Shown here: one piece after another, positions 3,779-62,022 of the stretch
How the letters are laid out: each line of letters starts with the position of its first letter
Position numbering within the stretch: position 1 is the first letter of the stretch
Assembly (NCBI GenBank): GCA_964621395.1
Contig: CAZULS010000001.1
Location: 64,615 to 128,614 of the forward strand
DNA length: 64,000 nucleotides
Source: an uncultured Candidatus Saccharibacteria bacterium
GTDB lineage: Bacteria; Patescibacteriota; Minisyncoccia; Phycocordibacterales; JACNGX01
Direction: 5' to 3'
The notes under the pieces: generated by a model
Databases searched by the model: none
What the model was told of the DNA's origin: nothing
What the model saw: only the letters and a program-made list of their open reading frames with translations
Position numbers and translations under genes: made by a program

Positions 3779-3953
3779 GTACGAAGTACGAACGCCTACG
3801 AACATACGAATCTTGTTTCTTGAAAGAAAACGGCTGTCATTCTGAACTTGATTCAGAATCCAGGAATAAATCTTATGGACTTCTAATCAAGTTGGGAATG
3901 ACAGCAAAAATGGGTGATGGAGCAAAAGCCATGTTCGTATGTTCGTATTGATT
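3779..3953. repeat. TACGAA-array inverted-repeat cassette. (TACGAA)n at 3779-3812 and (TTCGTA)n at 3936-3953 bracket a GTCAT-hairpin unit (3835-3863).
   Basis: gtacgaagtacgaacgcctacgaacatacgaatc ... gttcgtatgttcgtattg; internal tgtcattctgaacttgattcagaatcc. Confidence 0.6.
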
Positions 3954-4278
3954 TGTAGTTCGCAACCCAAAAGAAAAGAACGCATAATCCTCTAAACAAA
4001 ACTTTAAGTAAGACACTAAAAGGAGAATATACACTGGGGATAGTGTCAGCACTTTCCACGGAAAGTGAAACACCAACACGTCCTTGCATATATTCCGATC
4101 ATTTGTTTAGAGGATTATACGTTCTTTTGCATCAAAAATATTCGTCTTTTTTGAGATGCAAAACAACACGCCGCATCAATCTTTCGATTATGCGGACGAT
4201 TTCGAATATTTTGTTTTCAAGTGCGTGGTGTCACTGCCGACTACCAACGTGCGGATATCCTATCATACTTGAAAAAAT

Positions 4279-5313
4279 ATGTCAACCCCCTCTCCTCACA
4301 ACAATACTCCACCTGAAAACACGCCCAAAGACGAGCAAGTCCTGGATACAACGCTTCGTCCGACAAAATGGAACGACTATATCGGACAAGAACAAATTAA
4401 AAGCAATCTCCAAATCCTCCTTTCGGCGGCACATGAGCGCAACCAAGCGCCCGAACACCTCCTTTTTTATGGCCCTCCCGGTTTGGGGAAGACAACACTC
4501 GCGCATTTGATTGCGAAAGAAATGAATGCACAAATGAAGAGCACGTCGGGGCCGGCAATTGAGAAGGTGGGTGACCTTGCATCTATTCTCACCAATCTTT
4601 CCCCGGGTGATATTCTCTTCATCGACGAAATCCATCGCTTGAATAAGCTCATTGAGGAAATTCTCTATCCGGCAATGGAAACAGGTTCACTCGATATCAT
4701 TATCGGCAAAGGACCTTCCGCGCGTACTATTCAGCTCGACCTTCCTCCCTTTACCTTAATTGCCGCAACCACACGTGTCTCTCTGCTCTCCTCCCCTCTT
4801 CGCTCACGATTTTCAGGCGGCACATTCCGACTTGAGTTTTATACCGACGAAGAGATTGCACACATTGTAAAACGTTCTGCCGATATCTTGGGTATCAATG
4901 CTTCAGACGACGCAGCGGGAAAAATCGCCGAGCGAAGCCGAAAAACGCCCCGCACCGCCAATTATCTCTTAAAGCGATGTCGCGACTTCGCCCAGGTCCA
5001 CGGCAATTCCCTTGATGAGGGCGCGGTAAGTGGCGCACTCGAGCTTCTTGCCATCGATGAGCTTGGCTTAAATGCGGGCGACCGTGCCATTCTCGATACC
5101 CTTATCACCAAATTCGGTGGCGGACCGGTAGGCCTGAAGACAATTGCTGCGGCAATCTCCGAAGAAGAGAGCACGATTGAAGAAGTTCACGAACCATACT
5201 TGCTTCAACTCGGTCTCATCGACAGAACCCCACGCGGACGCATTGCCACAGAGAAAGCATATCGACATCTGGGACATGACATACCCGATGACGCGCAAGG
5301 AAAGTTACTGTGA
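4279..5313 (+). CDS. ruvB: Holliday junction branch migration helicase RuvB
   Basis: [25 protein letters not shown], and the RuvB-type C-terminal winged helix; 344 aa. Confidence 0.9.
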
Positions 5314-5317
5314 CATA

Positions 5318-5510
5318 ACAATACATTACGAATTACGAATATAATACGAATCTACGAATGGGTTATATGACTGCTTCGGACTTGCGACTTCCCCATATCA
5401 CGATATATTTTAAAGTGACATTTCTCTGGGACATCTTCTGAGAAAAACAAAACGTAAACCTAAAACTCCAAATAGAGTATTCGTATATTCGCGATATTCG
5501 TAATTCGTAA
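5318..5510. repeat. TACGAA-array inverted-repeat cassette, with (TACGAA)n at 5318-5360 and (TTCGTA)n at 5478-5510.
   Basis: acattacgaattacgaatataatacgaatctacgaatgg ... attcgtatattcgcgatattcgtaattcgtaatt. Confidence 0.6.
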
Positions 5511-5555
5511 TTTACCTTATTCTCCTACCATATTAACCTCCTAACCTCCTACCAT

Positions 5556-6293: not shown

Positions 6294-6770
6294 ATGCGTA
6301 TTATAGGTATCGACCCAGGTTTTGATCGTATTGGTATTGCGATTGTTGAGAAAGAGGACGGCTCTGATGTACTTGTGCATTCCACCTGTGTCGTTACCGA
6401 CCGCACCGATTCCTTTGCAGACCGACTCGTGACAATTGCCACGGAGCTTCGCACCCTCATTGAAAAGTACCAGCCCGACATGTGCGCTATCGAAACACTT
6501 CTCTTTGCGGCAAACAAAAAGACAGCCATGCAAGTAGGTGAGGCTCGTGGCGCTATGCTTCTCGTCTGTCGAGAAGCGCATCTCGATATTGTGGAATATT
6601 CACCGCTTCAGATAAAGACGGCCCTCACCGGCTATGGAAAGGCGGAGAAGTCTCAGGTTGAACAAATGGTGCGACAATTGGTGGATGTCCCCGGAGGAAA
6701 ACGACTAGACGATGAGATGGACGCTATCGCCGTTGGACTTACCGCTCTCGCACACGTGCATCATCACTGA
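6294..6770 (+). CDS. ruvC: Crossover junction endodeoxyribonuclease RuvC
   Basis: MRIIGIDPGFDRIGIAIVE... with RuvC catalytic Asp/Glu positions. Start moved to the MRIIG Met inside track ORF 6273..6770. Confidence 0.85.
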   Translation: MRIIGIDPGFDRIGIAIVEKEDGSDVLVHSTCVVTDRTDSFADRLVTIATELRTLIEKYQPDMCAIETLLFAANKKTAMQVGEARGAMLLVCREAHLDIVEYSPLQIKTALTGYGKAEKSQVEQMVRQLVDVPGGKRLDDEMDAIAVGLTALAHVHHH

Positions 6771-6830
6771 ATTGTATGAATTGACCTTCTTGTACCATCT
6801 CAGTATTAAGTAAAATATTTTGTTATGTTG

Positions 6831-7012
6831 GGTACGAAGTACGAACACATACGAACATACGAAGATAACCTCTTAAAAGGGGAGTTCTCGTCATTCCTGG
6901 CTCGACCAGGAATCCAGTAACAAACTCCTAGATCCCGCATCAAGTGCGGGATGACAGTAAAAATGAGGACTACGTCAAAAGCTGTATTCGTATGTTCGTA
7001 GTCATTCGTAGT
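6831..7012. repeat. TACGAA-array inverted-repeat cassette carrying two GTCAT-hairpin units (6890-6916 and 6931-6956)
   Basis: ggtacgaagtacgaacacatacgaacatacgaag ... gtattcgtatgttcgtagtcattcgtagtcc; internal gtcattcctggctcgaccaggaatc and gatcccgcatcaagtgcgggatgaca. Confidence 0.6.
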
Positions 7013-8820: not shown

Positions 8821-8934
8821 GTCATCCCGCACTTGATGCGGGATCTTGCAAAACCAAAGATAGTCTTTGGTTTTGTCCGTAACCCACTTTTCGAAACAAC
8901 TCGCTCGAGATCCCGCATCAAGTGCGGGATGACA
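8821..8934. repeat. Palindromic composite. Two identical GTCATCCCGCACTTGATGCGGGATC hairpin units in inverted orientation flank a 63-bp core with a central palindrome aaaccaaagatagtctttggtttt.
   Basis: 8821-8845 and the reverse complement of 8909-8934 are identical; seen in sequence. Confidence 0.6.
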
Positions 8935-11580: not shown

Positions 11581-11615
11581 AAAAGCGCGGCAACCTCCGG
11601 TCGCCGCGCTTTTGT
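11581..11615 (+). terminator. Rho-independent terminator after the PBP gene (aaaagcgcggcaacctccggtcgccgcgcttttgt)
   Basis: GC stem with U-tract. Preceded by the AGAAGTTAGGAATTCGGAATTAG motif, which is also seen after jag. Confidence 0.6.
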
Positions 11616-11633
11616 ATGATACACTTATTCGCC

Positions 11634-11748
11634 GTCATTCCTGGCTCCTACCGAGCTCGACCTAGCTCTTTCTCGGAAAAGGGCTGGGTGGGAATCTGGT
11701 GACCAGGAATCCAGGATTTCTGGATCCCGCATCAAGTGCGGGATGACA
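11634..11748. repeat. Composite of two GTCAT-hairpin units. The first, gtcattcctgg...ccaggaatc, carries a 58-nt insertion inside its loop. The second is gatcccgcatcaagtgcgggatgaca.
   Basis: Same unit pair and order as at 6890-6956, but with an inserted loop segment. Confidence 0.55.
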
Positions 11749-11803
11749 AGGTTAGTTGAGATAATAGATTTAGATTAAGGTGAAACCTTAATCTAGAAAA
11801 AAA

Positions 11804-12139
11804 TTATACATATTTCCCCTCACTGTCGGTATGTTCCAACACGTCTTTCATCATTTCTTTTGTAGAAGTATAAGAACGAGTTTTCCTTTTCTTTTTCTCC
11901 TGTGTATATTCTTCCACATTTCGGAGAATCTCCTTTTCTCTTTTCAAAGAATATCCATCTTCCGTACGCACTTCAAAAGGAATACTCTGAGTAGCAACAA
12001 CAGTGTGGAGAAAGAGATTTATTCCTGAAGAAAGATCTATGCCCATATCCTCAAAGGTTTTTTGTGCGCGCTTTTTTGTGCGCGCATCAACACGCACATT
12101 CACAACACTATTTTGTTTTTTTGTGGTTGATGTATTCAT
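11804..12139 (-). CDS. RelB/DinJ-family antitoxin-like protein with an extended basic C-terminus, 111 aa. No adjacent toxin gene found.
   Basis: VNVRVDARTKKRAQKTFEDMGIDLSSGINLFLHTVV matches the DinJ/RelB ribbon-helix-helix pattern. Confidence 0.4.
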   Translation of the reverse strand: MNTSTTKKQNSVVNVRVDARTKKRAQKTFEDMGIDLSSGINLFLHTVVATQSIPFEVRTEDGYSLKREKEILRNVEEYTQEKKKRKTRSYTSTKEMMKDVLEHTDSEGKYV

Positions 12140-12216: not shown

Positions 12217-12449
12217 TTAGAACCGGTCTCACTGAAAATGGCTGTTCTCGCGCCCACACTGCGAGCGAACCGTCGTCGCGGAGACCACAACGTACTACTC
12301 GTACGTTATGGTTGAGCGACAAGGTGCAGCCGCAGTGTGGGCGCGAGAACGGCGCATGCGTAGCTCTTGAATATGTTTCTATTATTTTTCAACGTTTTCA
12401 GTGAGACTGGTTCTATTATTTTTCAACGTTTTCAGTGAGACTGGTTCTA
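12217..12449. mobile_element. MITE-like element, M family, about 200 bp, TIR TAGAACCGGTCTCACTGAAAA / TTTTCAGTGAGACTGGTTCTA. The 3-prime terminal 33 bp is tandemly duplicated (12381-12415 and 12416-12449).
   Basis: Terminal inverted repeats and a conserved core (gagaccacaacgtac...ggttgagcgacaaggtgcagcc) shared with the copies at 20100, 35707 and 40392. Confidence 0.7.
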
Positions 12450-12707: not shown

Positions 12708-13029
12708 ACATGAAATAAAATATCAAATACCAAAACACAAATTCCAAATAATACCGAATATCAAAATCTCAAAACCCATTTGCTGTCATTCCTGGCTTGA
12801 CCAGGAATCTACAAGGCTATACGACCCACTCACGTCTGCCTGGACCGAGCACCACACTTATGTGTTTGAGAATAAAATTTTTTGTCAGTAAGATAGGTTA
12901 CTAGGAAGATTATATCCTCCATGAAATCAAAAGTGTGGTGCTTGGTGACGACAAAAGAGAGTTTGGAGATTAGAATTTTGGTCATTGAGATTTATTTGTC
13001 ATTTGGTGCTTGTGATTTGTAATTTTATT

Positions 13030-20299: not shown

Positions 20300-21595
20300 T
20301 CAGTAATTCACATTCTCCATTGCCTCATCGATGCGGAGAATCCATGGCGTCATGTCGCGCTTATTGGTAAAGAGAAGGAGTGAGCCGTCGTCGCTCAGAA
20401 TTGGGTTGATCAAGTCGATGGTGGCATCATACATATTTGGATCAACAAGAAAGAAGCCGGTAGACTCTTCGACATCGTAGTACCATATATCATCTTCAAA
20501 GAACATTTCCCCTTTGTACCACGTGTCGGGATATTGGATAAAAGGAAGGGAAAATGGCACTCCGCAATAGACACCCTCCCCCGCCGTGTCCCAGACACAT
20601 TTTTCAGGAAGTGTATCAAAAAGGAGCGCTGTTTCTTCCCCATCTGAGAAGACTTTTAGTATGAGCGTGTTCCCCAAGCTTTCAGAGAAAAGCACTTTCG
20701 TGCCGTCGGGGTTGACGAGTGTGGTGAGACCATTTATGCCGCTCAATAGAGGATTAAGTGTGCTTGAGGAGAGCGATGTGTAGTAGCTGTACCCGGGAAC
20801 AGATGCCGAGGGCTTTGTGGTGAGGTAGATATAGTCGTCTTCCGCCCAGTCGATAAGCCATTCGGAGAGCGGCGAAGAGAATGTCTCTTTCGGGCCTTCT
20901 CCGGAGAATGGCACAATAATGCCGCGAGAGCCACTTTGCGTTCGCTCAAGGAGAAAGAGTGAGTCTTGCGAGGGGTTGGTATCGAATGTAAGAGTACCGG
21001 TGCGGAGGAATTCTGCCTGAGCAACACCAATGACTTCCCCCTCTTCTTCTGCCGTGGAGATTGAAATGCCGGTCCCCTCAACAACATCAGTATCATTCAG
21101 TGAACGAGTAAAAAGCTGTGATCCGTCGGCACTGAAGAGTGCATCGTGAATATGCGGGATGGTTGTGTTGGTAATACGCGTTGCCTCAAGTGTGTCAACG
21201 GGGATATCAAATATATGTCCGGTCGCTTTTGTGATCACGCGAATAGCAAGAACATCCTCAGCCCCTTCTGTTTCTTCCTGTATTTCGGAGAGAGTGACAA
21301 ATGTCGCTCCTGACACGGGCTCGGGGAATACTTGGGAGATAAGGTCGATAGCGGGTTGAGTGCCGTCACTTGGCGTTGTGCCTCCCTGGGTACCATTCTC
21401 CTCTCCCCCACCGAAGAGAGAACCGAGAACACCCCCTCCTTCACCGCCAAAGAGAAAGCTAAAAAAACCACCACTTTGTATTTCCTCGGAAGTGTTATTG
21501 CGGTTGAGAAACATCATTCCCGCACCAGCAAGGATGGCGACGATAATGAGGATGAATCCCCAGAGAATAATTTGTTTTTGTCGTGCGCTGTTCAT
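20300..21595 (-). CDS. N-terminally membrane-anchored extracytoplasmic protein with a Gly-rich linker; last gene of the T4SS-like operon
   Basis: TM helix at residues 12-30, GGEGGG linker, and beta-rich C-terminal region. Confidence 0.5.
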   Translation of the reverse strand: MNSARQKQIILWGFILIIVAILAGAGMMFLNRNNTSEEIQSGGFFSFLFGGEGGGVLGSLFGGGEENGTQGGTTPSDGTQPAIDLISQVFPEPVSGATFVTLSEIQEETEGAEDVLAIRVITKATGHIFDIPVDTLEATRITNTTIPHIHDALFSADGSQLFTRSLNDTDVVEGTGISISTAEEEGEVIGVAQAEFLRTGTLTFDTNPSQDSLFLLERTQSGSRGIIVPFSGEGPKETFSSPLSEWLIDWAEDDYIYLTTKPSASVPGYSYYTSLSSSTLNPLLSGINGLTTLVNPDGTKVLFSESLGNTLILKVFSDGEETALLFDTLPEKCVWDTAGEGVYCGVPFSLPFIQYPDTWYKGEMFFEDDIWYYDVEESTGFFLVDPNMYDATIDLINPILSDDGSLLLFTNKRDMTPWILRIDEAMENVNY

Positions 21596-21600
21596 AGATG

Positions 21601-22623
21601 TTATTGAAAGAATGTCTTTTGAGTCTCTCCGAAGATGATGGATAGTGTCTCCGAAAAAGCTTGAAGTATGTATTCGGGGGAGGTAATGGAGAGGGAGACA
21701 GCCGTGTTCCCCGTTGTACCTTCCGGAACATCAATAGCCAAATCCCCCGGATTACTCCAATGCGACGGAACGGACACGCCTCCCACAGACCAGTCGTAAG
21801 AAAGCGACGAACGATTCAAATCATACGTGGAAAAGAAATACGGTTCGGCACGAAGGACGGTTTCTCTGTCTTCAAATACAGCACCGTCTGCAAGGGCTTC
21901 ATGGAAACGCACGCCGAGCGCTGGATGCTCTTCATAGAGTATGATTTCCGGATCGACTTCGGGAATGGAAATTGCCGCGCTTGCGCCAAGCGTGCCGCTC
22001 TGGGAGAGTGCTTCAACGGCAATTGTCTCAGCGGGGAGAAGTATATTTTTTTTCATTGTGAGGGTTGATTTCCCATATCCCGATTGGCTTTGTACATCGC
22101 GTTTGAAATTGTTACGGCTCCACGTATAGACAAGATTATTTTCAGAAATGCGCGCGCCACCTTGAGTGGTGATGTGTGGAACGGCAATGACCTTCACAAA
22201 TGCACCGGAAGCCGGAAGCGCCTTTCCTTTATAAAAAGGGGGTGTGTATGTTTGGGAGGCCTCCCAGAGGAGATCAATACTTTGTGGTGTGACAGAAAGA
22301 AACTTTTCATACACCGCATTCCCAATGCTGATTGTGGTGCGTATGGATGTCGTTTCCCCGGCGGAAGAAACAGGAAGAGAGAGGATCGTCATGCCGGGAG
22401 CGCTGTCCGAGAGAACACCGTCGACATACCAGGTAATGGTTGCTCTATCAAGATCGACGGCGTATGACGAGAGGGAGACGGTGACTGTTTCTCCCGGGCG
22501 CGGATACGCCGGCGAGATGCTCACGTCGATGTGCGGTTCGAATGCGTGTACCGCTCTCGTAGAAAGGAGAGTGGCACAGAGTACCAGAGGAAACAGGATT
22601 GTTGTGAGGAGAGTTTTTACCAT
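21601..22623 (-). CDS. Secreted hypothetical protein (signal peptide MVKTLLTTILFPLVLCATLLSTRAVHA)
   Basis: ORF track. Start moved to Met31, 7 nt after the VirB4 stop. Confidence 0.5.
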   Translation of the reverse strand: MVKTLLTTILFPLVLCATLLSTRAVHAFEPHIDVSISPAYPRPGETVTVSLSSYAVDLDRATITWYVDGVLSDSAPGMTILSLPVSSAGETTSIRTTISIGNAVYEKFLSVTPQSIDLLWEASQTYTPPFYKGKALPASGAFVKVIAVPHITTQGGARISENNLVYTWSRNNFKRDVQSQSGYGKSTLTMKKNILLPAETIAVEALSQSGTLGASAAISIPEVDPEIILYEEHPALGVRFHEALADGAVFEDRETVLRAEPYFFSTYDLNRSSLSYDWSVGGVSVPSHWSNPGDLAIDVPEGTTGNTAVSLSITSPEYILQAFSETLSIIFGETQKTFFQ

Positions 22624-22630
22624 AGATGTA

Positions 22631-24496
22631 TTATACCACGCCAGCAATGCTTGAAAGCGGATTGTCCGGAGCCTCATTCCCGCCGCTTTCTTTGAGGGCT
22701 TTCTTTGCTTCACGAATCTGGAGTACCTGTGAAGGATCGGAGGTGATGATTTGCTCCTCGGTGTAGGAAGCGAGGATTTTTATGGCAACGTGCTTGAGCC
22801 CTGCGAAGAATATACCTTCGCCGACATCGGATTCAAGAAGCAAAAATTTCTCTTCGTCGGTGAGATTGAATGTCTTTTGAACGGTGTCGATGGCTGTCGG
22901 TGATTGCTTGAGGAGAAGCTGGATTGAGGAGTTGGTGATAATCGGCAAGCCATACGGTGAACGAAGGAAGTCGGACACATCTTGGGTGATGGTTGCCACG
23001 CCAAGATAGTATTTTCGACCACGTTTCGTCATGCCAAAGAGGAACGATGCCGTGTCTTCGGATTTCATCATCCACCATGCCTCATCGATCACGAGAAGTC
23101 GCTTTTTAAGCTCGCGGCGAACGGCATTCCAGATAAAGTGGGTGATGATGTGCATGGCAACCGTCTTAAGCTCATCTTCCATATCACGCACAGAGAAGAC
23201 CACAAACTTTTTATTGATATTGATATTGGTTGGGCGGTTGATAAATTCAGACCACGTACCTTTTGTGTATTTTGAAAGACGATTGAGAAGTGACTCCCCT
23301 CCTTCCATGCCGGAGAGTACCATTTCAAAATCGGAAAGAAGCGGCGGTACAACATGCGAGAGGTCTGAATCGGGTGTAATGTCTTTGAGTGCGTAGGTTT
23401 CCGTGATGGCACGGTCGATGATGGAATCTTCCTCGGGAGACAGTCCTCCAAGCATGATACGGAAAAGACCGACGAGCGAAATGGTATTGGCACGAAGAAC
23501 ATCAGCCGCCGTCTCATCCTCACTGGGCATGGGAAGGTCGAAAGGATTGATGTGATGAGGAGATGTGAGCGAGATATTAAAATAGCGACCGCCTGCGGCT
23601 TCTGCCATAAATTCATATTCGCGCTCCGGGTCAATCACAATCACCTCCGTATCAAACATGAGGGTGCGAAGAATTTCAAGCTTGGTAGCAAACGATTTTC
23701 CGGCACCTGAGGTGGCGAAGATCACGGAATTGTAATTTTCCATTGAGAAACGGTCGAAAAGAACGAGGCTGTAATTGTGTCGGTTGATACCGTAGAGAAT
23801 ACCGCGATCGGATGTGAGATTAAATGAGATAAACGGAAAGATGCTAGAGAGCGGCGAAGAATTAAGCTTTGAGTGAATACCGAGCGAGTCGGACCCTGAG
23901 GGAATAACGCTCTTAAACGCGTCTTCTTGCTGGAAGAGGCTGGGCTTGAGATAGACGAGCTTTGATTCGAGAATCGACTTGATTTCCGATTCGATACGAT
24001 CGAGCTCTTCTTCTGTTTTTCCATAGACGGTGATGTAGAGGCCGACATCAAAGAGACGCTCTTGGGCCTGTTGGAGCTGGTCGCGAAGGTTTTCAAGATT
24101 GGCATAGGCGGCGGCAAGCTTCGGATCGCGCACCATACCGCGTTCCTCGCGCATCATAATTTGACTTTCCACCTCGGCAACTTTTTTCTGGAATTTGCGC
24201 AAAATAGCGGCGGTGTCCACCGGATGAATATGGATGGACACATCAAAGACAGCATCGAGGTTTACAATCGGGGAGAACCAGCTGTCGGCGAGATAACGCG
24301 GATAGGAGATGACAAAGAACGTGCGGGCAATACGGTCGCCCAAATTGAGCTCGCGAGGGGTGATTTTAAGTGCCGAGGGAGCAATAACGTCCTTCAATTC
24401 CAATACTGCCGATTCATATATTTCATGCGGCAATACAGGCACCACTTCCGGTGTGTCTTTCCCCTTCCCTATTCCCAATGTATCAAGAAGTGACAT
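22631..24496 (-). CDS. VirB4/TrbE/CagE-family type IV secretion ATPase
   Basis: Walker A IFATSGAGKSFATK, Walker B VIDEAW, 621 aa, domain order typical of VirB4. Confidence 0.8.
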   Translation of the reverse strand: MSLLDTLGIGKGKDTPEVVPVLPHEIYESAVLELKDVIAPSALKITPRELNLGDRIARTFFVISYPRYLADSWFSPIVNLDAVFDVSIHIHPVDTAAILRKFQKKVAEVESQIMMREERGMVRDPKLAAAYANLENLRDQLQQAQERLFDVGLYITVYGKTEEELDRIESEIKSILESKLVYLKPSLFQQEDAFKSVIPSGSDSLGIHSKLNSSPLSSIFPFISFNLTSDRGILYGINRHNYSLVLFDRFSMENYNSVIFATSGAGKSFATKLEILRTLMFDTEVIVIDPEREYEFMAEAAGGRYFNISLTSPHHINPFDLPMPSEDETAADVLRANTISLVGLFRIMLGGLSPEEDSIIDRAITETYALKDITPDSDLSHVVPPLLSDFEMVLSGMEGGESLLNRLSKYTKGTWSEFINRPTNININKKFVVFSVRDMEDELKTVAMHIITHFIWNAVRRELKKRLLVIDEAWWMMKSEDTASFLFGMTKRGRKYYLGVATITQDVSDFLRSPYGLPIITNSSIQLLLKQSPTAIDTVQKTFNLTDEEKFLLLESDVGEGIFFAGLKHVAIKILASYTEEQIITSDPSQVLQIREAKKALKESGGNEAPDNPLSSIAGVV

Positions 24497-24686
24497 ATAG
24501 ATTACAACTGTATTGGCTTACCCAGCCCCACTTTCACCGACAGAGTTGTAATTTTTACGTGCGTTAGAGGCTTCATATACCTTCAAATGATTAATGAAAT
24601 GAATGAGTGAAAGTGGGGCTGGATTGCAGAGGAGTTATCTTACCTTGAACGTTGGATACCTTGTTACTCATTGTATCACGCTTTTA

Positions 24687-25337
24687 CTACAACTGAATCG
24701 GTTTATCGAGCTCGCCGGGGTTAAAGATGCGGTAAAAGAGTTCGATCAATTCTTCCGTACCCAGCGGCGATGTGCGGATGCCGGTGCGTACGAGACCTTG
24801 CTGGACGATGTACGCACGTTGTTCGAGCTGAGAGCGATTGACCTCGAATTCGTCTTCCCCTTTCTTTCCCTCGGGGAACTGTTTTTTCTTCGTTCCCAAA
24901 ACGTCACCGAGGACGCCCGTGTTTGTCGCGATAATTGATGGCGTATACGGGACGACAATGAAGAAATTCTTCGACATGATATTGGTTTGTTCGGTGAATG
25001 TTTTGATGAAGCGAATGTATTCGCGGATCTGCACTTTCGAAAGATCATTCACCTGCTCTTTTTCGCGTCGTTCAAGGAGGGCAACATATGGACGGACATC
25101 ATAGCGGCGGGATTGAATGTAGATTTGCACCGAAAAATCAAGTGAATTGAGGAAATTTTGAAATTGGATGAGGATAGACTGCTGCTCATCCGGAGACTTC
25201 AGCGACATATTTACCGAGGATGTCATCAGTACCATTTTCAGTGACCCATCTTCCATCACAGCCACACCATCCCGCACTTCTTTGATAGGGACGAATTTCT
25301 GAGACGCTTCTGATTTTTTTGCTGTTGATGTTGGCAT
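24687..25337 (-). CDS. T4SS-operon hypothetical protein (216 aa)
   Basis: Operon context only. FVPIKEVRDGVAVMEDGSLKMVL... has no confident family. Confidence 0.45.
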   Translation of the reverse strand: MPTSTAKKSEASQKFVPIKEVRDGVAVMEDGSLKMVLMTSSVNMSLKSPDEQQSILIQFQNFLNSLDFSVQIYIQSRRYDVRPYVALLERREKEQVNDLSKVQIREYIRFIKTFTEQTNIMSKNFFIVVPYTPSIIATNTGVLGDVLGTKKKQFPEGKKGEDEFEVNRSQLEQRAYIVQQGLVRTGIRTSPLGTEELIELFYRIFNPGELDKPIQL

Positions 25338-25352
25338 GGTGATAATAATAGC

Positions 25353-25772
25353 TTACTGTATATTTTTTTGCACATCCAAACTCCAGGCAATATCTTTGAG
25401 CTTGCTTTGCGAGAGTGACGGCACGTGCATCGTCTCTTGAGATGGCATACTCTCTTGGTTAGCCGCTTTTTTCTGTGCCTCTTTCTTTTTCCAATCTTGG
25501 CTCCAGAGGTAAAGCTTGGCTCGCGTTGCATACATGAAGGCAGCTTCCAAGACATCAATGAAAGGGCGGTTGTGTATTTTGAGGAATGCAAGTGCAATGC
25601 CCAAACTCGCAATCGGGAGGATGAGAAGTGCGGCGAAGAAGAGAGGCAACGATACGTAGAGGACATAGGAAATACCTGCTGCTCCCACCAAGTAGAGAAA
25701 CTGGCGAAACGAAAGTGTTCCGGCAAAGATTTTGTCCTCTACCTCGATGAATTGTGGTGTTTGGAATTGCAT
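25353..25772 (-). CDS. PrgI/VirB3-like small 2-TM T4SS protein
   Basis: EDKIFAGTLSFRQFLYLVGAAG followed by two TM helices, a pattern typical of PrgI-family proteins. Immediately upstream of the VirB4-like gene. Confidence 0.55.
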   Translation of the reverse strand: MQFQTPQFIEVEDKIFAGTLSFRQFLYLVGAAGISYVLYVSLPLFFAALLILPIASLGIALAFLKIHNRPFIDVLEAAFMYATRAKLYLWSQDWKKKEAQKKAANQESMPSQETMHVPSLSQSKLKDIAWSLDVQKNIQ

Positions 25773-25855
25773 AAGTGAGTTGCGAGTATCGAGTATCGAG
25801 TTTCAAGCATGGGCACCTACGGTGCCCATAGGCATACTAATCGCGTGTCTTTTTC

Positions 25856-26539: not shown

Positions 26540-26555
26540 ATGTGTCTATATGTGA

Positions 26556-29066: not shown

Positions 29067-29106
29067 AGAAGAACACTATTGATTTGTGTATATAAAAACT
29101 CCCGCA

Positions 29107-31376: not shown

Positions 31377-31400
31377 GGAATAAAAGAAAACGGATAAATA

Positions 31401-37571: not shown

Positions 37572-37698
37572 GTCATTCCCGCCCCCGAGCGGGAATCTAT
37601 AAGTCTATATAACCAACCTGCGTCTGCCCTGGATCCTGAATCAAGTTCAGGATGACACCAATATGTATTGGGTGTCATTCCGGGCTTGACCCGGAATC
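37572..37698. repeat. Cluster of three GTCAT-hairpin units with different stems: gtcattcccgcccccgagcgggaatc (+), ggatcctgaatcaagttcaggatgaca (-), gtcattccgggcttgacccggaatc (+)
   Basis: Seen in sequence. The third unit encodes the last residues (DSGSSPE) and TGA stop of gene 37675..38310. Confidence 0.65.
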
Positions 37699-40391: not shown

Positions 40392-40600
40392 ATGAAAGTT
40401 GTTAGAACCAGTCTCACTGAAAATGGCTTGTTCACACGCCCAAACTGCGAGCGAGCCGACGTCGCGGAGACCGTGCCGCACTGCCGTGCGGTGCGGTTGA
40501 GCGACAAGGCGCAGCCGCTGTTTGGGCGTGGGAACTGCCAAGCGTAGCTCTTGAATATGTTTCCCTTATTTTTCAACGTTTTCAGTGAGACTGGTTCTAG
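40392..40600. mobile_element. MITE-like element, M family, 208 bp, immediately upstream of pcrA/uvrD. Flanked by TCGAG-hexamer repeats on the left and a GTTGGTAGTTTTTAG + GC-hairpin motif on the right.
   Basis: TIRs TAGAACCAGTCTCACTGAAAA / TTTTCAGTGAGACTGGTTCTAG; core about 90 percent identical to 35707-35906. Confidence 0.75.
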
Positions 40601-41409
40601 TTGGTAGTTTTTAGTTTTTAGTGGGCGCGGCTACGCCGCGCCTCATAAATTACACTTCCTGTCATCCCGCACTTGATGCGGGATCTCCGCTATATTGTTT
40701 CCAGACATGGTTGGGGAAGATCCTGAATCGAGTTCAGGATGACACAGGGAACATGGGTGCCAGCACATCTGCATTTCATATCATACAAAAAAACAAAGGG
40801 CCCGTTAGAAACGGACCCCTCAGGAGGTGAAGCATGGCATCCGGGATAATCGATATCAAATGACTGATAAATGTCTTAAGTAATGAACATGAGAAAAAGT
40901 AAAAAAGAGGAGAGTGCGTGGCGCCACGCAGCATGTTCAAAAAGAAAGACAAAAATCAACCAACTGATATACGACTATGTCGAATCAAGCTTCACTTAAA
41001 AAAGAACAGGTACAAAAGAGCGCAAGTAACGATAGCTGATACTATTCTCGCATATCTCACGCATTCGTCAAGTGCGATTGTGGATAAAACTAGCCCCGCC
41101 TTTTTACGGGCGGGGCCTGCGACGAACATCTTTGCGCGGGGTTTGCACTACCGTGTGATGCTGCTCATATCGCGGCAACCTGTTTCAGAGACACTGACAC
41201 AGGTTGTGGTAATCGGGGATGCACGTTTCATAACGTTCTCCTTTTACCGAATTTGGGAATTCAGTAAAGGTAATGCAAGGGCATTACCCCTTGTTCTTCC
41301 ATTCCCATAGAGAAGAACAAACGAATTTCAATATAACATATCTAAGACACAAAGTTAAATATATTTCTGCTCAAAAGATTTTCTGTAACAGATGTGACAT
41401 TATCAAAAA

Positions 41410-47458: not shown

Positions 47459-47702
47459 TACGAACGATAAATAAAAAACGATAAACGATAAATCAAAAAA
47501 CACGAGCTCGCGCTCGTATTTTTTGTGTAAAAGATAAACCTGTAACGATATTACTTTCCACTGTCATCCCGCACTTGATGCGGAATCCAGGCAGAAGTGG
47601 GTGGTTATATATACTTTTAGATTCCCGCTCGGAGGCGGGAATGACAATCTTTCTTACTCATAAGCAGAAAATGGCACATAAAAACCCCGCACAGAGCGAG
47701 GT

Positions 47703-48227: not shown

Positions 48228-48407
48228 AGCTACGTGTTTTGTTGTTGTGCAAGATTTCTTCCGATATCCTACCCAAAACATGCCGAAGGTGCAAGGGAAA
48301 TTCTTTTTGTCATCCCGCACTTGATCCTAAATCGCAAGCGTCGGATACAATGCGGGATCTCGAGAGTATTGTTTCAAGAAGTGACGGCAAGTGAAGAGAA
48401 GCAAGAA

Positions 48408-56337: not shown

Positions 56338-56544
56338 TATCCAACAGCAACAGAAATGCCCCCGCAGGTTTCGGCCTTCGGGGGATGTTTATTTGTATAC
56401 AAAAGCAGGGGTGTGCTGTGCACGCCCCTGCTCTTTTACTCTTAGATCCCGCATCACCCACGTCGCCAAGGCTTTGCGGGGCAAGCGTGCGGGATGACAC
56501 ACAACAAAAGGGCGCGCAAAGCGCGCCCTTTTGTTGCCGTCCGC

Positions 56545-57270
56545 TTACGCAAATCGTTTGATTTCCCGTTCCAGCGCGGTTTTGAAATCGCGAATGATTC
56601 TGTGGTGGTCCTTGGGAAGAAACGTTTTGAGTTCCGCGGAAAAATCAATATCACTCGCGCGCAGCGCGCCAATCACGTCGGCAAACAGCTTCGTTTTGTC
56701 CGTCTTTTTAGGAAGCATATTGCGGCGGAGTAAAAAATAAAAATCGTAAAAATCACGCGGCTTTTTGCGCGAAAGAAGTGCGTCTATTTTTCCCGCCACC
56801 AAATCTTCTTCGGCAAGTTGCACGAGCGTGTAGTCAGGAATCATGGCACTTGTGACAAGCGTTGCTGTTCCGCGCGTGTTTCTTTTTCGAAGCGATATTT
56901 CGGTGCGTATCGGTATTGTTTCATCGCCGAACAAAAAGCGCATAATGGAAAGATGTCCGCCACTCGTTTTCTTGACTTCGTCCAGTGCTACATTCGCGCC
57001 GCCGCGCTGCATGTCTTCAAGTGCCGCCGCAATCGCGTCTTCAATGCCACGTACGTTGTTCTCCGAAGCATCAAAATCCAAATCTTCGGAAAAGCGCGGA
57101 CTTCGGTATAAAAGCCGCAGAGCGGTACCACCTTTGAAATACAGCGCGTCAGCGTGCGGGGATCGATACAGCGACGAAAGAAAAAGATGCTGGACATATT
57201 CGCGCCGTACGTTAAGTTCGGACGTGCGCAGCGCGTGGGAAAGACGAGTGATTGCGTCGGGTGAAAGCAT
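56545..57270 (-). CDS. abiEii: AbiEii/AbiGii-family nucleotidyltransferase toxin (type IV TA / abortive infection)
   Basis: FKGGTALRLLYRSPRFSEDLDFD hallmark motif. Start set at MLSPDAI so that it follows the antitoxin stop by a few nt. Confidence 0.75.
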   Translation of the reverse strand: MLSPDAITRLSHALRTSELNVRREYVQHLFLSSLYRSPHADALYFKGGTALRLLYRSPRFSEDLDFDASENNVRGIEDAIAAALEDMQRGGANVALDEVKKTSGGHLSIMRFLFGDETIPIRTEISLRKRNTRGTATLVTSAMIPDYTLVQLAEEDLVAGKIDALLSRKKPRDFYDFYFLLRRNMLPKKTDKTKLFADVIGALRASDIDFSAELKTFLPKDHHRIIRDFKTALEREIKRFA

Positions 57271-57274
57271 ATTA

Positions 57275-57886
57275 CTACGTGAGAGAACGGATAACGGTAT
57301 CGAGTTTTTTTCTGTCAAACAATGTCGCATACGACCGTATTTTATGGTGGTTCAGCCGCGATATGTTCACGCGGTCGTTCATGGTTTTTTTTCCGAGGGC
57401 GACAAAATACGCGTAGTCAACAAGAGCTTTTTCCGGCTCCGCGATGTACACAATGTGTCCGTCAATCGTTTCGGGGACATAGCCTGCGTACGCGCGCGGC
57501 TTGATGGTGGCGTATGTGAATGTTTTTTCATTCACGGAAAACGACGCGGTTGTTTTCGGCGTGACGGACGTGATTGCGTACGGCATCTCGGGAATAATGC
57601 CGAACCGCGCGAGCGCGTATTCGAGAGAAATGTACGAGGGAACGTACAGAGCGTTTGCGATGACTTCTTCCGACGGCATGGCGTGTGCAAGCGCGTAGAG
57701 TCCTTTTTTCAGACGTGTAAATAGTCCGCGCTTTGTGTATGTTTCGAGAAAATATTTTGTCTGCGTCGGCGAAAGGGAAAACAGCCGCCGGATGTCGCGC
57801 GGAGAAAAGACGGCAATATCGTTCTCTTGCAGCGCACGCTGTATTGCCAGCGGTTGATCAAATTTTGATTTGCGAAAAGTGTACAT
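57275..57886 (-). CDS. abiEi: AbiEi-family antitoxin / transcriptional regulator
   Basis: N-terminal wHTH (DIRRLFSLSPTQTKYFLETYTKRGLFTRLKKGLY) and C-terminal AbiEi_3/4-like domain; upstream of and overlapping AbiEii. Confidence 0.7.
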   Translation of the reverse strand: MYTFRKSKFDQPLAIQRALQENDIAVFSPRDIRRLFSLSPTQTKYFLETYTKRGLFTRLKKGLYALAHAMPSEEVIANALYVPSYISLEYALARFGIIPEMPYAITSVTPKTTASFSVNEKTFTYATIKPRAYAGYVPETIDGHIVYIAEPEKALVDYAYFVALGKKTMNDRVNISRLNHHKIRSYATLFDRKKLDTVIRSLT

Positions 57887-58110: not shown

Positions 58111-58626
58111 CTACCGTCTTTTTCTCCCTCCAATAATGAATTTCTTTGGGTCGAGGTCCATGTCGAGGAAGTCGTCGGCAACCTCCTTGAGTGCCGCTGA
58201 TGATGAACGCCCGAAAGAAACCACTTCTACTTGGGTGTTGTTTTTCAGATATTCCACGAGTGGGACAAAGTCGCCATCTCCGGAGACGAGAATAATGGCA
58301 TCGAGCTTCGGTGCCATACGAATGGCGTCCACCGCTATCCCGACGTCCCAGTCGGCTTTCTTGGCGCCACCGTAAAAAATTTGCAAATCTTTGGTGCGGG
58401 TTTCGATACCGTGCTTGGCAAGGGCGTCGAGGAATGTCTGCTCCTCCCCCGATTCGGTGGTAATGGCATAACAAAATGCGCGGATGAGCTGGCGTCCGCC
58501 GACGGCTTCGCGCATGAGTGCATCAAAGTTTACATTGCCTTTGTAAAGATGTTTTGCGCTGTGATAGAGATTTTGCGCGTCTATAAAAACGCCGACACGC
58601 TGTTGGCGATGTTTAATGATTGGCAT
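58111..58626 (-). CDS. NYN-domain (LabA/PIN-like) protein
   Basis: VFIDAQNLY...DVGIAVDAI...LVSGDGDFVPLVEYLK...VEVVSF. Confidence 0.65.
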   Translation of the reverse strand: MPIIKHRQQRVGVFIDAQNLYHSAKHLYKGNVNFDALMREAVGGRQLIRAFCYAITTESGEEQTFLDALAKHGIETRTKDLQIFYGGAKKADWDVGIAVDAIRMAPKLDAIILVSGDGDFVPLVEYLKNNTQVEVVSFGRSSSAALKEVADDFLDMDLDPKKFIIGGRKRR

Positions 58627-58842
58627 GGATAGTATGTTAGTAGATTAGTAAGTGAGGAGGTTAGTAAAAAGCAATATAGTATCGCGAGCTATCGCCCGCT
58701 CAAAATATAAAAATCATAAAATGAGCTTGTATGTAAATTACGATACTGAGTAATAATGATTGACACAATCTTTGTGTCGGTATACACTATTGATACATGT
58801 GGCAGGAGTGTCACGTGACATCAAATGCGGGGTCCCGAGTCT

Positions 58843-59499
58843 TTACGGCTCGGGGCTCTTTGCGTTCTTTTCCCGTACACGAAGAAATGTGTGCCGGAAA
58901 TTTGCGATATCAAAATAACGGGACAGTGCGGGAGGCAACTCTCTGGCAATGTGTCCGGAACGGGAAAAGCCGATAACTGTTTTTCCTTTTCCCCGCAAAA
59001 ATTTTATCAGATATTCAAAATCGCAATCGCCGGAGAAAAGGATACACGTGTCAAACGTATTGAGAAAGAACGTCGCGTCTGTTGCGATTTCCACATCGAA
59101 ATTCGCTTTTCGGTGGGGCAGTCGTGCTGAGTGATCGTCGTATTCTTTGAGCGGTTTTGTCACCAGTTTGAAGTTGAGATTTTTAGCGAGAAAATATCTG
59201 AATTTCTCATGACCCGTATTTTCAAATGCCGGTGTGTAAAATCGTATTCCTGTGAACGACGGAATGCTTTTGAAAAAATCGTTCAATTTTTTATAATCCG
59301 CTGACCATCGCAGTTGTTCGCTCGGCATATGCTTGTATTCCTCAGGGACATCGTCGGGTCTGACAAACATGTCTTTTACCGATTGCTCAAGATTTGCCGC
59401 GTCGATGTAGACGGCAACGTTTCCTCGCAGTGTTTGTGTAAACTTCTCTTCATATTCACTCATGAGAACAGTATACCACAAGGACATTTTTTGGCGCAT
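58843..59499 (-). CDS. NYN-domain (LabA/PIN-like) protein, divergent paralog of 58111..58626
   Basis: VYIDAANL...DVEIATDA...ILFSGDCDFEYLIKFLRGKGKTVIGF. Confidence 0.6.
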   Translation of the reverse strand: MRQKMSLWYTVLMSEYEEKFTQTLRGNVAVYIDAANLEQSVKDMFVRPDDVPEEYKHMPSEQLRWSADYKKLNDFFKSIPSFTGIRFYTPAFENTGHEKFRYFLAKNLNFKLVTKPLKEYDDHSARLPHRKANFDVEIATDATFFLNTFDTCILFSGDCDFEYLIKFLRGKGKTVIGFSRSGHIARELPPALSRYFDIANFRHTFLRVREKNAKSPEP

Positions 59500-59531
59500 A
59501 GAAAAGGCGCGCTCACGCGCGCCTTTTCATA

Positions 59532-59804
59532 TTACTCCGAAGCCTTAAGCCCGAGTTCGGCAACGACCTTGTCATACGCTTCCTTATCGTGCTTCTTCAA
59601 GTATTTCAAATGTGCGCGGCGATCCGCAACCATCTGAAGAAGACCACGACGGGAGTGATTATCCTTGTGATTCTTCTTCAAGTGGCTCGCAAGCTCATCA
59701 ATGCGCTTGGAAAGAAGACCGATTTGCGTGGACGCCGAACCGGTGTCTTTCTCGTGCTTGGCGGTTTTCTTGATAGCATTGGCTTTTTTCTGTTTCGTAA
59801 GCAT
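59532..59804 (-). CDS. rpsO: 30S ribosomal protein S15
   Basis: HKDNHSRRGLLQMVADRRAHLKYLKKHD...LGLK. Start at MLTKQKK. Confidence 0.85.
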   Translation of the reverse strand: MLTKQKKANAIKKTAKHEKDTGSASTQIGLLSKRIDELASHLKKNHKDNHSRRGLLQMVADRRAHLKYLKKHDKEAYDKVVAELGLKASE

Positions 59805-59914
59805 AGGCACAATGATAGCACACCCTCCAAAATAATGCAAATCAGTAATTTTTGTGCTAGGATTGGGGGAGGTTTGTTGGGATTTCCTGTAACCTCTAGA
59901 ATAAGGAGGCTGTT

Positions 59915-60244
59915 ATGTCGCAAAGAGCGCACAGGGTCTTTGATATTGATCCTGATATGGCCCACGTATCTTGCATGAACTGTGGCGCGGTTACACTGGC
60001 TACTGTAGATTCTAAAAAGATATCCCCTTCCGTTGCTCATATTATTCCCCTGGACGAATTAGAGAGCGTGAAGGTAAAAATCAAGGTGCCTTTTAAAAAA
60101 GAATTTATGAAGACAAAAGCATATAATGGGTATGTAACAAAATGTCCCTTTTGTAGGCTTCAGGAGGAAGCAGAATCAAATCAACTTCTTTTTTATAACG
60201 GGATTATGCTGTTCCCGAAATATTTTGCAAGCGCTCCGGTCTAG
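59915..60244 (+). CDS. Small zinc-ribbon hypothetical protein (CMNCG...CPFC)
   Basis: ORF track; two CxxC pairs. Confidence 0.4.
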   Translation: MSQRAHRVFDIDPDMAHVSCMNCGAVTLATVDSKKISPSVAHIIPLDELESVKVKIKVPFKKEFMKTKAYNGYVTKCPFCRLQEEAESNQLLFYNGIMLFPKYFASAPV

Positions 60245-60565
60245 GGGCGCTTTTTTTGTGTGGGACCATATTACATCAGTTGTCATCCTGAACTCTTGCC
60301 GAGCCCCACCTCGGAGGTCGGAATGGACAAATGAAGGAGTAATATGTCATTCTGAACTTGATTCAGAATCTCATCGAAAAGAAGCAAATAGCGAAGATTC
60401 CGTGTCAAGCACGGAATGACAATGATGGAGTTTTGCACACAAAAGCACGATGGTCGAAGGTCGCCGCGCATTTTTTACCGTTTACATGCCCGAGCACGAC
60501 TTGTCGTGCTTTAGGGTCGTTTAACGTTTATAGTTTATCGTTAGTTTTTTGAGTATAATACCTAT

Positions 60566-61477
60566 ATGTCGCACAATATTGATGAATACATTACGCGCTT
60601 TTTAGAATATGTGGAGATTGAGCGTGGGCGCAGCTTGAAAACGGTACGCAATTACGATCGCTATTTGCGGCGCTTTGTTGCCTACTCCGGTGTGAAGCAC
60701 GTGGAAGATATTACCGATGAAGGGGTGCGGCGTTTTAGACTGTGGCTCAATAAACAGCCCTCTCCCGATGGCGGTACCCTCAAGAAAAAAACACAGAATT
60801 ATTATCTCATTGCCTTGCGGAGTTTTCTCAAATACATGGCGCGCGAGGGTATTAAAACGCTCTCTCCTGAGCGCATTGAGCTTGCGAGTGTGTCTGCGCG
60901 TGATTTGGATCTCATTTCCGTGGAAGAACTCGAGCGCTTGCTTGAAGCTCCCGGGGGGAACGACTTGAAAGCGCTTCGCGACAAGGCAATGCTGGAGCTT
61001 CTTTTCTCCACCGGTTTGCGCGTGTCGGAGCTTGCCTCGCTTTCGCGTGATATTGAAATCGACAAGGACGAATTCTCTGTGCGTGGAAAAGGAGAAAAGA
61101 TTCGCGTGGTTTTCATTTCCCCTTCCGCGCGCGAGGCGGTGAAAACATATTTGGCGGAGCGCACCGATATGGACGACGCTCTTTTTATCCAGCTTGGTCC
61201 GCGTGCAAATGCTGAAGGCGATATGAGGCTTTCGCCGCGCAGTATCGAGCGCATTGTAAAGCACTACGCAATCAAGGCCGGTATTTCTCGTAAGGTGACG
61301 CCGCATGTGATTCGTCACTCGTTTGCCACAGACCTTCTTCAAAACGGCGCCGATTTAAGAAGCGTGCAAGCCATGCTCGGCCACTCCAATATCCAAACGA
61401 CACAAGTCTACACCCACGTGACCGACCGTCAGCTCAGAGAGATTCACAAAGCATTTCATGGGAAGAGGAGGAAATAG
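60566..61477 (+). CDS. xerC: Tyrosine recombinase XerC/XerD
   Basis: R...HxxR...Y catalytic residues (LRVSELASL, HVIRHSFAT, HSNIQTTQVYTHV); N-terminal SAM-like core-binding domain. Confidence 0.85.
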   Translation: MSHNIDEYITRFLEYVEIERGRSLKTVRNYDRYLRRFVAYSGVKHVEDITDEGVRRFRLWLNKQPSPDGGTLKKKTQNYYLIALRSFLKYMAREGIKTLSPERIELASVSARDLDLISVEELERLLEAPGGNDLKALRDKAMLELLFSTGLRVSELASLSRDIEIDKDEFSVRGKGEKIRVVFISPSAREAVKTYLAERTDMDDALFIQLGPRANAEGDMRLSPRSIERIVKHYAIKAGISRKVTPHVIRHSFATDLLQNGADLRSVQAMLGHSNIQTTQVYTHVTDRQLREIHKAFHGKRRK

Positions 61478-62022
61478 GTGAGTTACGAGTTACGAGTTTC
61501 GAGAGGAGAGAGTGGTTGTTTGGGCACGATGACAGAAGAGAGGAGTTTTTAGTTGGTAGTTTTTAGAAAAGGCGCGGCTAATGCCGCGCCATAAGAAAAA
61601 AGAGGGCGGCACCGCAGGTGCCGCCCTCTTTTTTCTCCATGCTCCTCCTGTGTCATTCCCGCCTCCGAGCGGGAATCTTCGCTGTTATATGAGTGAAAGA
61701 TAAGATTCTGAATCAAGTTCAGAATGACAGCAGTATAGATGTTGCAACAGCCGCGCGGACATGAATGTCCGCGCGGCTGTTTGACAATATTTGCACAACG
61801 ATATATCCTCAAAGACAGGTAACAGCTTTTTGAATAAAACGATAAGAGACATGATTATTTTAGAGCTTGGAAAAGGCGGAAAAGTTCACAGGACCCAAAT
61901 CGCCGAAAACGTGTCACTGGAAGAATTTGCGGAAACGTCTGACAGTCGTTGTGTTGTGAGTGTAGACGAGGAAAAGCGAGTGAGAGTTTTAAAAGGGGTG
62001 TATATCTTTTTTTGTTCTCATC

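Follow-up and report, generated by a model that had tools for sequence, protein, structure and literature searches.

The 64-kb stretch of DNA examined here (64,000 nucleotides of contig CAZULS010000001.1, from an uncultured bacterium; hereafter the window) is chromosomal, encoding dnaA, dnaN, rnpA, yidC, ruvB, yebC, ruvC, tyrS, a class A penicillin-binding protein (PBP), pnp, clpB, uvrD, comM and pilB. Also present are a block resembling a type IV secretion system (T4SS), a xerC/D-like gene and AbiE and RelB toxin-antitoxin systems. The proteins nearest to those of the window come from Parcubacteria/Paceibacterota near Ca. Yonathbacteria, and on the basis of protein similarity the host is placed as a Parcubacterium near that group. 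Scattered through the intergenic regions of the window is a family of short, oriented DNA hairpins, comprising 24 complete units of 25–26 nt and one half unit, and it is this family that forms the subject of the present analysis. A preliminary description of the stretch had listed positions for hairpin repeats of this kind; when these were read directly from the sequence, each was found to hold a unit.

Anatomy and distribution of the hairpin units

The units follow the consensus GTC-[A-T-Y-C-NNNN]-CTYGA (or CYCCGA)-[NNNN-G-R-A-T]-C, with the paired arms in brackets. With up to two mismatches allowed, GTCATYCNNNNCTYGANNNNGRATC was matched 18 times in the window against 0.15 matches expected from shuffles. 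A covariance model trained on 20 window units identified 24 robust copies (E < 2e-5), corresponding to 0.38 units per kb. In addition to the pattern matches, three units possess the 6-nt loop CYCCGA (37572, 47620–47645 and 61652), four complete units carry long loop insertions (11634–11711, 35934–35985, 48309–48359 and 56445–56498), and one 5′ half unit occurs at 60282. All are given below with their strand and the supporting evidence.

1881–1905, minus: single unit GTCATTCCCGGCTTGAACGGGGATC, imperfect stem, old copy (pattern and covariance model)
3836–3860, plus: stem TTCTGAA, left half of a convergent doublet, within a TACGAA-array bracket in the pilB/ruvB spacer (pattern and covariance model)
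3878–3902, minus: degenerate unit GTCATTCCCAACTTGATTAGAAGTC, right half of the doublet with 3836 (pattern and covariance model)
6890–6914, plus: stem TTCCTGG with loop CTCGA, forms a doublet with 6931 (as left half) in the ruvC/tyrS spacer (pattern)
6931–6955, minus: stem TCCCGCA, right half of the doublet with 6890 (pattern)
8821–8845, plus: stem TCCCGCA, forms a doublet with 8909 (as left half) where the tyrS and PBP1 genes diverge (pattern, folding)
8909–8933, minus: stem TCCCGCA, right half of the doublet with 8821, 63-nt spacer (pattern)
11634–11711, plus: stem TTCCTGG, 53-nt loop insertion after GGCT (folding, covariance model)
11723–11747, minus: stem TCCCGCA, right half of a doublet, 11-nt spacer (pattern and covariance model)
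12785–12809, plus: single unit, stem TTCCTGG (pattern and covariance model)
35934–35985, plus: stem TCCCGCA, 27-nt loop insert (TCCTACACCACAAGCGGTCGGATA...) (folding, covariance model)
37572–37597, plus: stem TTCCCGC, 6-nt loop CCCCGA, left half of a doublet (folding, covariance model)
37632–37656, minus: stem TCCTGAA, intact, right half of the doublet with 37572 (pattern)
37674–37698, plus: stem TTCCGGG, divergent to unit 37632–37656 (pattern and covariance model)
40661–40685, plus: stem TCCCGCA, forms a doublet with 40719 (as left half) on the upstream side of uvrD (pattern)
40719–40743, minus: stem TCCTGAA, loop CTCGA, right half of the doublet with 40661 (pattern)
47563–47587, plus: stem TCCCGCA with one C-A mismatch, half of the doublet with 47620 (pattern)
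47620–47645, minus: stem TTCCCGC, loop CTCCGA, other half of the doublet with 47563 (covariance model)
48309–48359, plus: stem TCCCGCA, 26-nt loop insert (folding, covariance model)
56445–56498, minus: stem TCCCGCA, GC-rich loop insert of 29–34 nt (folding, covariance model)
60282–60295, plus: 5′ half unit GTCATCCTGAACTC followed by a CCGAG...CTCGG hairpin, with no matching 3′ half (folding, sequence reading)
60346–60370, plus: stem TTCTGAA, forms a doublet with 60396 (as left half) on the upstream side of the xerC/D-like gene (pattern)
60396–60420, minus: stem TTCCGTG, right half of the doublet with 60346 (pattern)
61652–61677, plus: stem TTCCCGC with loop CTCCGA, forms a doublet with 61704 (as left half) on the downstream side of the xerC/D-like gene (covariance model)
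61704–61728, minus: stem TTCTGAA, right half of the doublet with 61652 (pattern)

The alignment of the 20 uninterrupted units is invariant at G6, T7, C8, A9, T10, C12, the loop C, G and A and the 3′ T-C, and varies at the four central stem positions and the Y-R pair. Both flanks, GTC on the 5′ side and C on the 3′ side, are found in 20/20 of these units, and the 5′ GTC is present in 24/24 covariance-model matches; 3878–3902 ends in AAGTC instead of GAATC. Within the stem, 97.1% of cells are in standard pairs and five of the seven scored pairs are altered on both sides. The observed covariation score was reached by none of 500 shuffles, and slid registers pair at 14–53%. Folding of the units as single-stranded DNA (ssDNA) predicts an 8-bp hairpin for each, at −6.4 to −9 kcal/mol, in which the A following GTC pairs with the T preceding the final C. 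Seven stem variants are present side by side (TCCCGCA, TTCCTGG, TTCTGAA, TCCTGAA, TTCCCGC, TTCCGGG and TTCCGTG), and most copies combine a perfect stem with the invariant flanks. These results support the earlier proposal that the stems are selected for pairing and not for sequence.

All units are intergenic, occurring in every type of intergenic region and often adjoining canonical terminators, and their orientation is balanced on either side of dnaA. Nine convergent pairs with GTCA facing outward and spacers of 11–63 nt were identified, as well as one divergent pair, in keeping with the both-orientation, head-to-head arrangement reported in the preliminary description; arrays in the window contain at most 3 units. 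The termini that had been proposed for the repeat, GTCATYC...GRATGAC, are correct for the outer ends of a doublet, since the GRATGAC there is contributed by the inverted partner with its 5′ end, but not for the single unit, which ends in GRATC (GTCATYC-N(8-24)-GRATGAC gave 0 matches).

There is a 23-kb stretch (13000–35900) which is free of units and which contains the dnaN-dnaA-rnpA-yidC origin region and the T4SS-like block (20300–32400, with PrgI, TraC-like and VirB4/TraG-like genes), with short intergenic spacers. The xerC/D-like tyrosine recombinase gene (60566–61477) has convergent doublets on both sides (60346–61728) and the half unit 60282 just upstream, a bracketing which may be a coincidence given the density of units. 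Two adjacent paralogs with an NYN domain (PIN-like nuclease; 58111–59499) are located just upstream of the unit cluster at 60282–60420. Units also have a consequence for annotation, in that they account for spurious or extended ends of open reading frames (ORFs). An example is the ORF at 37675–38310 on the minus strand (211 aa, no Pfam match), whose last seven codons (...DSGSSPE) and TGA stop come from unit 37674–37698, the stop arising because inverted GTCA reads TGAC.

Relation to the NTS/SRM hairpins and the ssn gene

A scan for the unit pattern, using one genome per species, identified it in at least 120 loci from Alpha-, Beta- and Gammaproteobacteria, Bacteroidota, Campylobacterota, Nitrospirota, Chloroflexota, Melainabacteria, Elusimicrobia, Patescibacteria and Saccharibacteria, cultured isolates among them. 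Among the 134 pattern matches listed, all four free stem positions are complementary in 123. The repeat is therefore a cross-phylum element and not a curiosity of one lineage.

Hairpins of a similar design are known from Neisseria, where the dRS3 palindrome ATTCCC-N8-GGGAAT sits within a longer oriented sequence termed NTS, CGTCATTCCCGCG-MAV-GCGGGAATCYRG (Chenal et al., Nat Commun 2025, PMC11893778). The same paper reports NTS-like "Ssn-related motifs" (SRM) from many phyla, flanking ssnA, a gene for a 94-aa single-domain GIY-YIG protein (cd10448). SsnA is described as binding the hairpin only as ssDNA and in one orientation, cutting a few nucleotides upstream and having no action on RNA or double-stranded DNA. 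In mutagenesis, binding depended most on the C right 3′ of the palindrome and cleavage on the 3 nt upstream of it; cleavage survives removal or extension of the loop. In N. meningitidis the Ssn system reduces transformation by NTS-bearing DNA, and the published trend is for SRM-rich genomes to be those of symbionts (Chenal et al., 2025).

The invariant bases of the window units (GTC 5′, C 3′) are exactly the binding and cleavage determinants reported for NTS (PMC11893778). The likeness to NTS/SRM includes GTC directly 5′ and C directly 3′ of an oriented AT(T/C)C...G(A/G)AT palindrome, many intergenic copies per genome, occurrence in multiple phyla, a loop of unimportant sequence and units that flank ssn genes. 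The window repeats can thus be assigned firmly to the NTS/SRM class of oriented DNA hairpins. The kind is one already known (dRS3 since 2000, NTS/SRM-Ssn since 2025) and the notion that the repeats are no part of a known REP-type family has to be dropped; it is the host clade that is new.

There are nevertheless differences from NTS. The loop in the window is CTYGA or CYCCGA, as opposed to GMAVGC in NTS; the seven coexisting stem variants are AT-richer and more diverse; the density of units is very high; no ssn gene is seen in the 64-kb window; and the host is a Parcubacterium, a member of the Candidate Phyla Radiation (CPR), a clade without mention in the main text of PMC11893778. The exact ATTCCC-N8-GGGAAT of dRS3 occurs in no window unit, the closest being ATTCCC-N10-GGGAAT in the units at 37572, 47620 and 61652. 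The Neisseria intergenic mosaic elements (NIMEs) are arrays in which palindromes of the type ATTCCC...GGGAAT are set between short and variable "RS" spacers; they are dynamic between strains and were once thought to be Neisseria-specific (Parkhill 2000; Bentley 2007, PMC1797815). The RS elements there measure 50–150 bp and form long arrays, whereas the window has spacers of only 11–63 nt and arrays of 2–3 units.

Small GIY-YIG ORFs were found beside units in 5 of 120 random unit-bearing 8-kb loci, and a profile made from four of these five allowed the best 80 metagenomic ssn loci to be collected. The protein family of these 80 loci is PF01541 ("GIY-YIG nuclease family protein"), with UPF0213 proteins as the closest solved structures. 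A unit occurs within 250 bp of ssn in 72 of the 80 loci, and on both sides in 52. Upstream units are mostly in plus orientation, toward ssn (61:18, i.e., 61/79), and usually lie 36–86 nt before its start, and downstream units are mostly inverted (77:19, i.e., 77/96) and usually lie 20–60 nt past its stop. From these counts a canonical cassette can be derived, [GTCA-hairpin-TC>] ssn [<GA-hairpin-TGAC], the left and right hairpins of which are often unlike in stem and loop. In four loci (L138, L154, L167 and L170) the units flanking ssn have exactly the sequences of window units (TTCTGAA.CTTGA, TCCTGAA.CTTGA, TTCCGTG.CTTGA and TTCCGGG.CTTGA). Neighboring units in the 120 random loci were arranged convergently in 60 cases, divergently in 14 and in tandem in 17; in the same tally the convergent arrangement prevails by 7 to 1 in the window. 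The doublets of the window have the geometry of the ssn cassette with the gene missing.

Turnover among relatives and neighboring features

Syntenic DNA was available from several relatives of the window's host, namely L124, L206, L208 and a TARA relative (L122 and L207). The units counted in each by the covariance model were as follows.

Window: 24 units in 64 kb
L124: 10 units in 21 kb
L206: 4 units in 10 kb
L208: 2–3 units in 22 kb
TARA relative, L122: 2 units in 21 kb
TARA relative, L207: 0 units in 22 kb

The TARA relative therefore has 2 units in 43 kb, a density which the window exceeds ~8-fold. The uvrD and SBF genes on L207 are 93% nucleotide-identical to those of the window, yet no unit accompanies them.

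Doublets differ in position and state of preservation from one relative to the next. Neither L122 nor L124 has the doublet at 6890–6955 in its ruvC|tyrS spacer; a homologous copy of the doublet, together with its flanking TACGAA arrays, is found upstream of dnaA in L124. Doublet 8821–8933 is absent from both L122 and L124. The doublet that the window carries at pilB|ruvB corresponds in L124 to one collapsed palindrome; in L122 the bracketed element is missing in its entirety. Unit 1881–1905 is orthologous to a decayed unit in L124, doublet 37572–37656 has an ortholog in L206, and unit 40661 is conserved in L206, where its partner 40719–40743 is decayed or absent. Within the window itself, doublets 37572–37656 and 47563–47645 are homologous end to end, but their right-hand stems, TCCTGAA in one and TCCCGCA in the other, differ by compensated changes. 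Clean pairs of empty and filled junctions for a lone unit were not found among these sequences; orthologous intergenic regions differ by several stacked insertions.

The loops are also subject to change. The L206 ortholog of 37632–37656 contains a 52-nt loop insertion after GAACT, the unit in the window being intact. This insertion (L206 7023–7091) is 79% identical to the insert of the 11634 unit of the window, whose stem is of a different type. Comparison of the inserts at 35950 and 48325 confirmed the homology that the preliminary description had noted for them (there placed at 35951 and 48326), and unit 35934–35985 lies within a 300-bp segment that is absent from L207. Such insertions fit an Ssn mechanism, because cleavage by Ssn is reported to tolerate a removed or extended loop (PMC11893778). 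Rearranged units were also observed in other phyla. At some loci the 5′ half unit (GTCAT, the 5′ stem and ~9 nt) is repeated in tandem two to five times before one complete unit, and at others a second hairpin is nested in the unit loop, often after a CCTGYCC motif (tandem half-unit and nested-hairpin loci: L171 538–598, L147 2589–2608, L016 1515–1538, L081 7879–7899, and L036, L094, L142 and L150). This suggests a common mode of unit rearrangement.

Other repeats were noted in the window as well. Arrays of TACGAA (2–4 copies, 7–10 nt apart) on the left and of inverted TTCGTA on the right bracket whole spacers of the pilB-ruvB-yebC-ruvC cluster, at 3780–3810/3934–3947, 5327–5358/5480–5509, 6088–6101/6258–6288 and 6833–6863/6987–7010, with a weaker example at 62431–62454/62528. 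Two of these brackets have an SRM doublet inside and two do not. They are kept at the orthologous spacers of L122 and L124 and recur upstream of dnaA in L124; the pilB|ruvB block is missing in L122. The brackets could represent long-range RNA stems, protein-binding arrays or the ends of miniature inverted-repeat transposable elements (MITEs).

A MITE of ~190 bp, whose terminal inverted repeats GAACCAGTCTCACTGAAAA each follow a TA, occurs in the window at 12220–12447, 35710–35903, 40405–40597 and 57964. The same element was found in L122 at 6606–6801 and 11592–11784, the insertion sites differing between the window and its relatives, and the TA preceding its ends looks like a TA duplication of the mariner/IS630 type. 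Also present is an inverted repeat of ~158 bp (32453–32610 and 34770–34927, 90% identity) flanking lnt-like and DUF192 genes; Logan contig L001 terminates exactly inside it. The toxin-antitoxin genes of the window comprise an AbiEi/AbiEii pair at 56545–57886 and a RelB antitoxin at 11804–12139. A tRNA scan of the window found none.

Proposed mechanism, alternatives and significance

Taken together, NTS/SRM identity with an Ssn-nuclease mechanism is in our view the best explanation for these repeats, and probably the correct one. Most likely, the folded strand is recognized and cleaved in a strand-specific manner by an Ssn encoded outside the window. Where DNA becomes single-stranded, in replication, in repair or as incoming transforming DNA, each unit would fold into its 8-bp hairpin, to which a small single-domain GIY-YIG Ssn nuclease would bind. 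The nuclease would read both flanks of the palindrome, the C that directly follows it on the 3′ side and the GTC that directly precedes it on the 5′ side, and would cut that strand a few nucleotides upstream. It is presumed here that the genome encodes such an Ssn, that all seven stem variants serve as its substrates and that it drives the spread of the units. The doublets are most likely REPIN-like derivatives of the ssn cassette; as gene-less miniatures of "unit - ssn - inverted unit" they would be non-autonomous, and would duplicate, decay and turn over.

A number of points weigh against this explanation. Pfam was run on ~50 ORFs of the window and custom Ssn hidden Markov models on all six-frame ORFs of at least 30 aa, and no ssn/GIY-YIG ORF was identified in the 64-kb window (best E 0.76–1.5 with the Ssn models) or in ~97 kb of syntenic DNA from the relatives. 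A close relative among the Parcubacteria is represented in none of the 80 best metagenomic ssn loci, and the best 120 Ssn protein matches are all from other phyla, with no Parcubacterial Ssn among them. GIY-YIG nucleases are hydrolytic and have no known strand-transfer activity, and the spread of the units is thus not accounted for. The published SRM pattern, HGTCWYN(0-2)YYVSBRHN(0-5)WNVSBRGN(0-2)RNCYNB, which was hand-built from 29 genomes of 4 phyla (PMC11893778), has 6 matches in the window (0.2 expected). Only 6 of the 25 units fit it; the AT-richer stems, with T or A at V/S positions, are the ones that fail. Furthermore, N. meningitidis SsnA is reported to be inactive once the stem sequence is altered with the hairpin kept, and seven coexisting stems would therefore call for an enzyme of relaxed specificity or for several paralogs, unless many of the copies are inactive. 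The same source gives 19% of genomes with >200 SRMs as being without an ssnA homolog (Chenal et al., 2025).

That last figure, the lack of ssn in the window and the presence of decayed copies (1881–1905, 3878–3902 and the half unit 60282) would also fit a reading of the hairpins as orphan relics, which came by descent or import with an ssn cassette since lost and are now neutral and decaying by mutation. We regard this as improbable, however, given that most copies retain perfect stems and invariant flanks and that the ~8-fold excess in density over a relative with 93% identical flanking genes points to recent gain and not to long decay.

There is likewise little likelihood that the hairpins are in essence targets of a recombinase or of IS110 elements, with the loop inserts as footprints of insertions. 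It is the case that short elements occur exactly in the hairpin loop, one of them polymorphic (37632–37656 empty, L206 filled), that a homologous insert is found in a unit of another stem type (11634), that the xerC/D-like gene at 60566–61477 is bracketed by doublets and that dRS3 is a known target of phage integration (PMC1797815). The inserts, however, are just 26–53 nt in length and non-coding, the window contains no DEDD/IS110 transposase or prophage, and its tyrosine recombinase resembles a housekeeping Xer. Such a use would in any case add to the Ssn mechanism and not replace it.

A role at the level of RNA was also considered, either as transcribed hairpins which terminate, stabilize or direct the processing of mRNAs or as a small structured RNA family, the latter having been raised in the preliminary description. 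Since E. coli REPs stabilize upstream mRNA, a secondary RNA effect of the units is possible, and their location at gene ends beside bona fide terminators as well as the compensatory changes in their stems would agree with it. As the main explanation it is very improbable. Both orientations are found at each site and hence there is no consistent relation to transcription; the hairpins are followed by CAG, TTC or TAT with no T-run, canonical terminators being separate; and Rfam gave 0 matches at the gathering threshold over the whole window, with only chance-level similarity at 11600–11780. The invariant bases, moreover, are the unpaired GTC and C, which are of importance to an ssDNA nuclease, and SsnA, the partner of the family, acts on ssDNA and is reported to be without RNA interaction (PMC11893778). 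Both the recombinase-target and the RNA uses could coexist with the Ssn mechanism as secondary ones.

The least credible alternative is that of classical REP (repetitive extragenic palindromic) elements or REPINs which owe their mobility and maintenance to a RAYT, an IS200/IS605-like Y1 transposase, whose gene lies elsewhere in the genome. The units do resemble these in being intergenic, oriented hairpins with a conserved 5′ tetranucleotide-like flank and in forming inverted doublets as REPINs do (PMC3116915, PMC3337134), but that flank is an invariant GTC(A) and not GTAG/GTGG, no Y1 transposase of the PF01797 type was found among the window ORFs scanned with Pfam, units flank a GIY-YIG ssn in 72/80 loci, and a biochemical partner has already been published (PMC11893778). 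The comparison with REP/RAYT substrates in the preliminary description is accordingly apt for the oriented intergenic hairpins in inverted doublets and not for the enzyme, there being no RAYT/IS200-like, Y1 or IS110 gene in the window. In the duplication of inverted doublets as a unit the two systems agree, although this trait fits SRM equally well and so does not discriminate between them. They are also alike in having a single-copy nuclease gene bracketed by repeats and copies that evolve as populations within a genome (Bertels and Rainey 2011, PMC3116915). Where they differ is in the partner, which for SRM is a hydrolytic GIY-YIG nuclease and not an HUH/Y1 transposase, no transposition chemistry being known for Ssn.

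With the present window the Ssn/SRM system, or at least its DNA half, is placed in the CPR. A density of 0.38 units per kb would amount to ~300–400 copies in a 1-Mb genome, in line with the published trend for SRM-rich symbionts (PMC11893778). How the repeats multiply and act outside Neisseria is a question left open in that paper, and the window provides clues to it in the form of gene-less doublets resembling the cassette, whole doublets at different loci, the ~8-fold density gap between relatives and loop insertions that are polymorphic between relatives. In the available text of PMC11893778 no mention was found of a doublet geometry mirroring the ssn cassette, of loop-targeted mini-insertions, of 5′ half-unit arrays or of whole-doublet duplication with compensated divergence. 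A more speculative proposal, put forward tentatively and with more doubt than confidence, is that SRM doublets are REPIN-like, non-autonomous mobile elements, miniatures of the ssn cassette copied in trans via a GIY-YIG ssDNA nuclease, with their loops as preferred landing sites for small insertions, and that they are undergoing a lineage-specific burst in a streamlined CPR genome. As pilB and comM are both present in the window, a link between the hairpins and DNA uptake in CPR bacteria is worth testing. If the mobile-element proposal is true, the doublets would constitute a replicative repeat system in which a hydrolytic nuclease of the GIY-YIG family takes the place of an HUH transposase.

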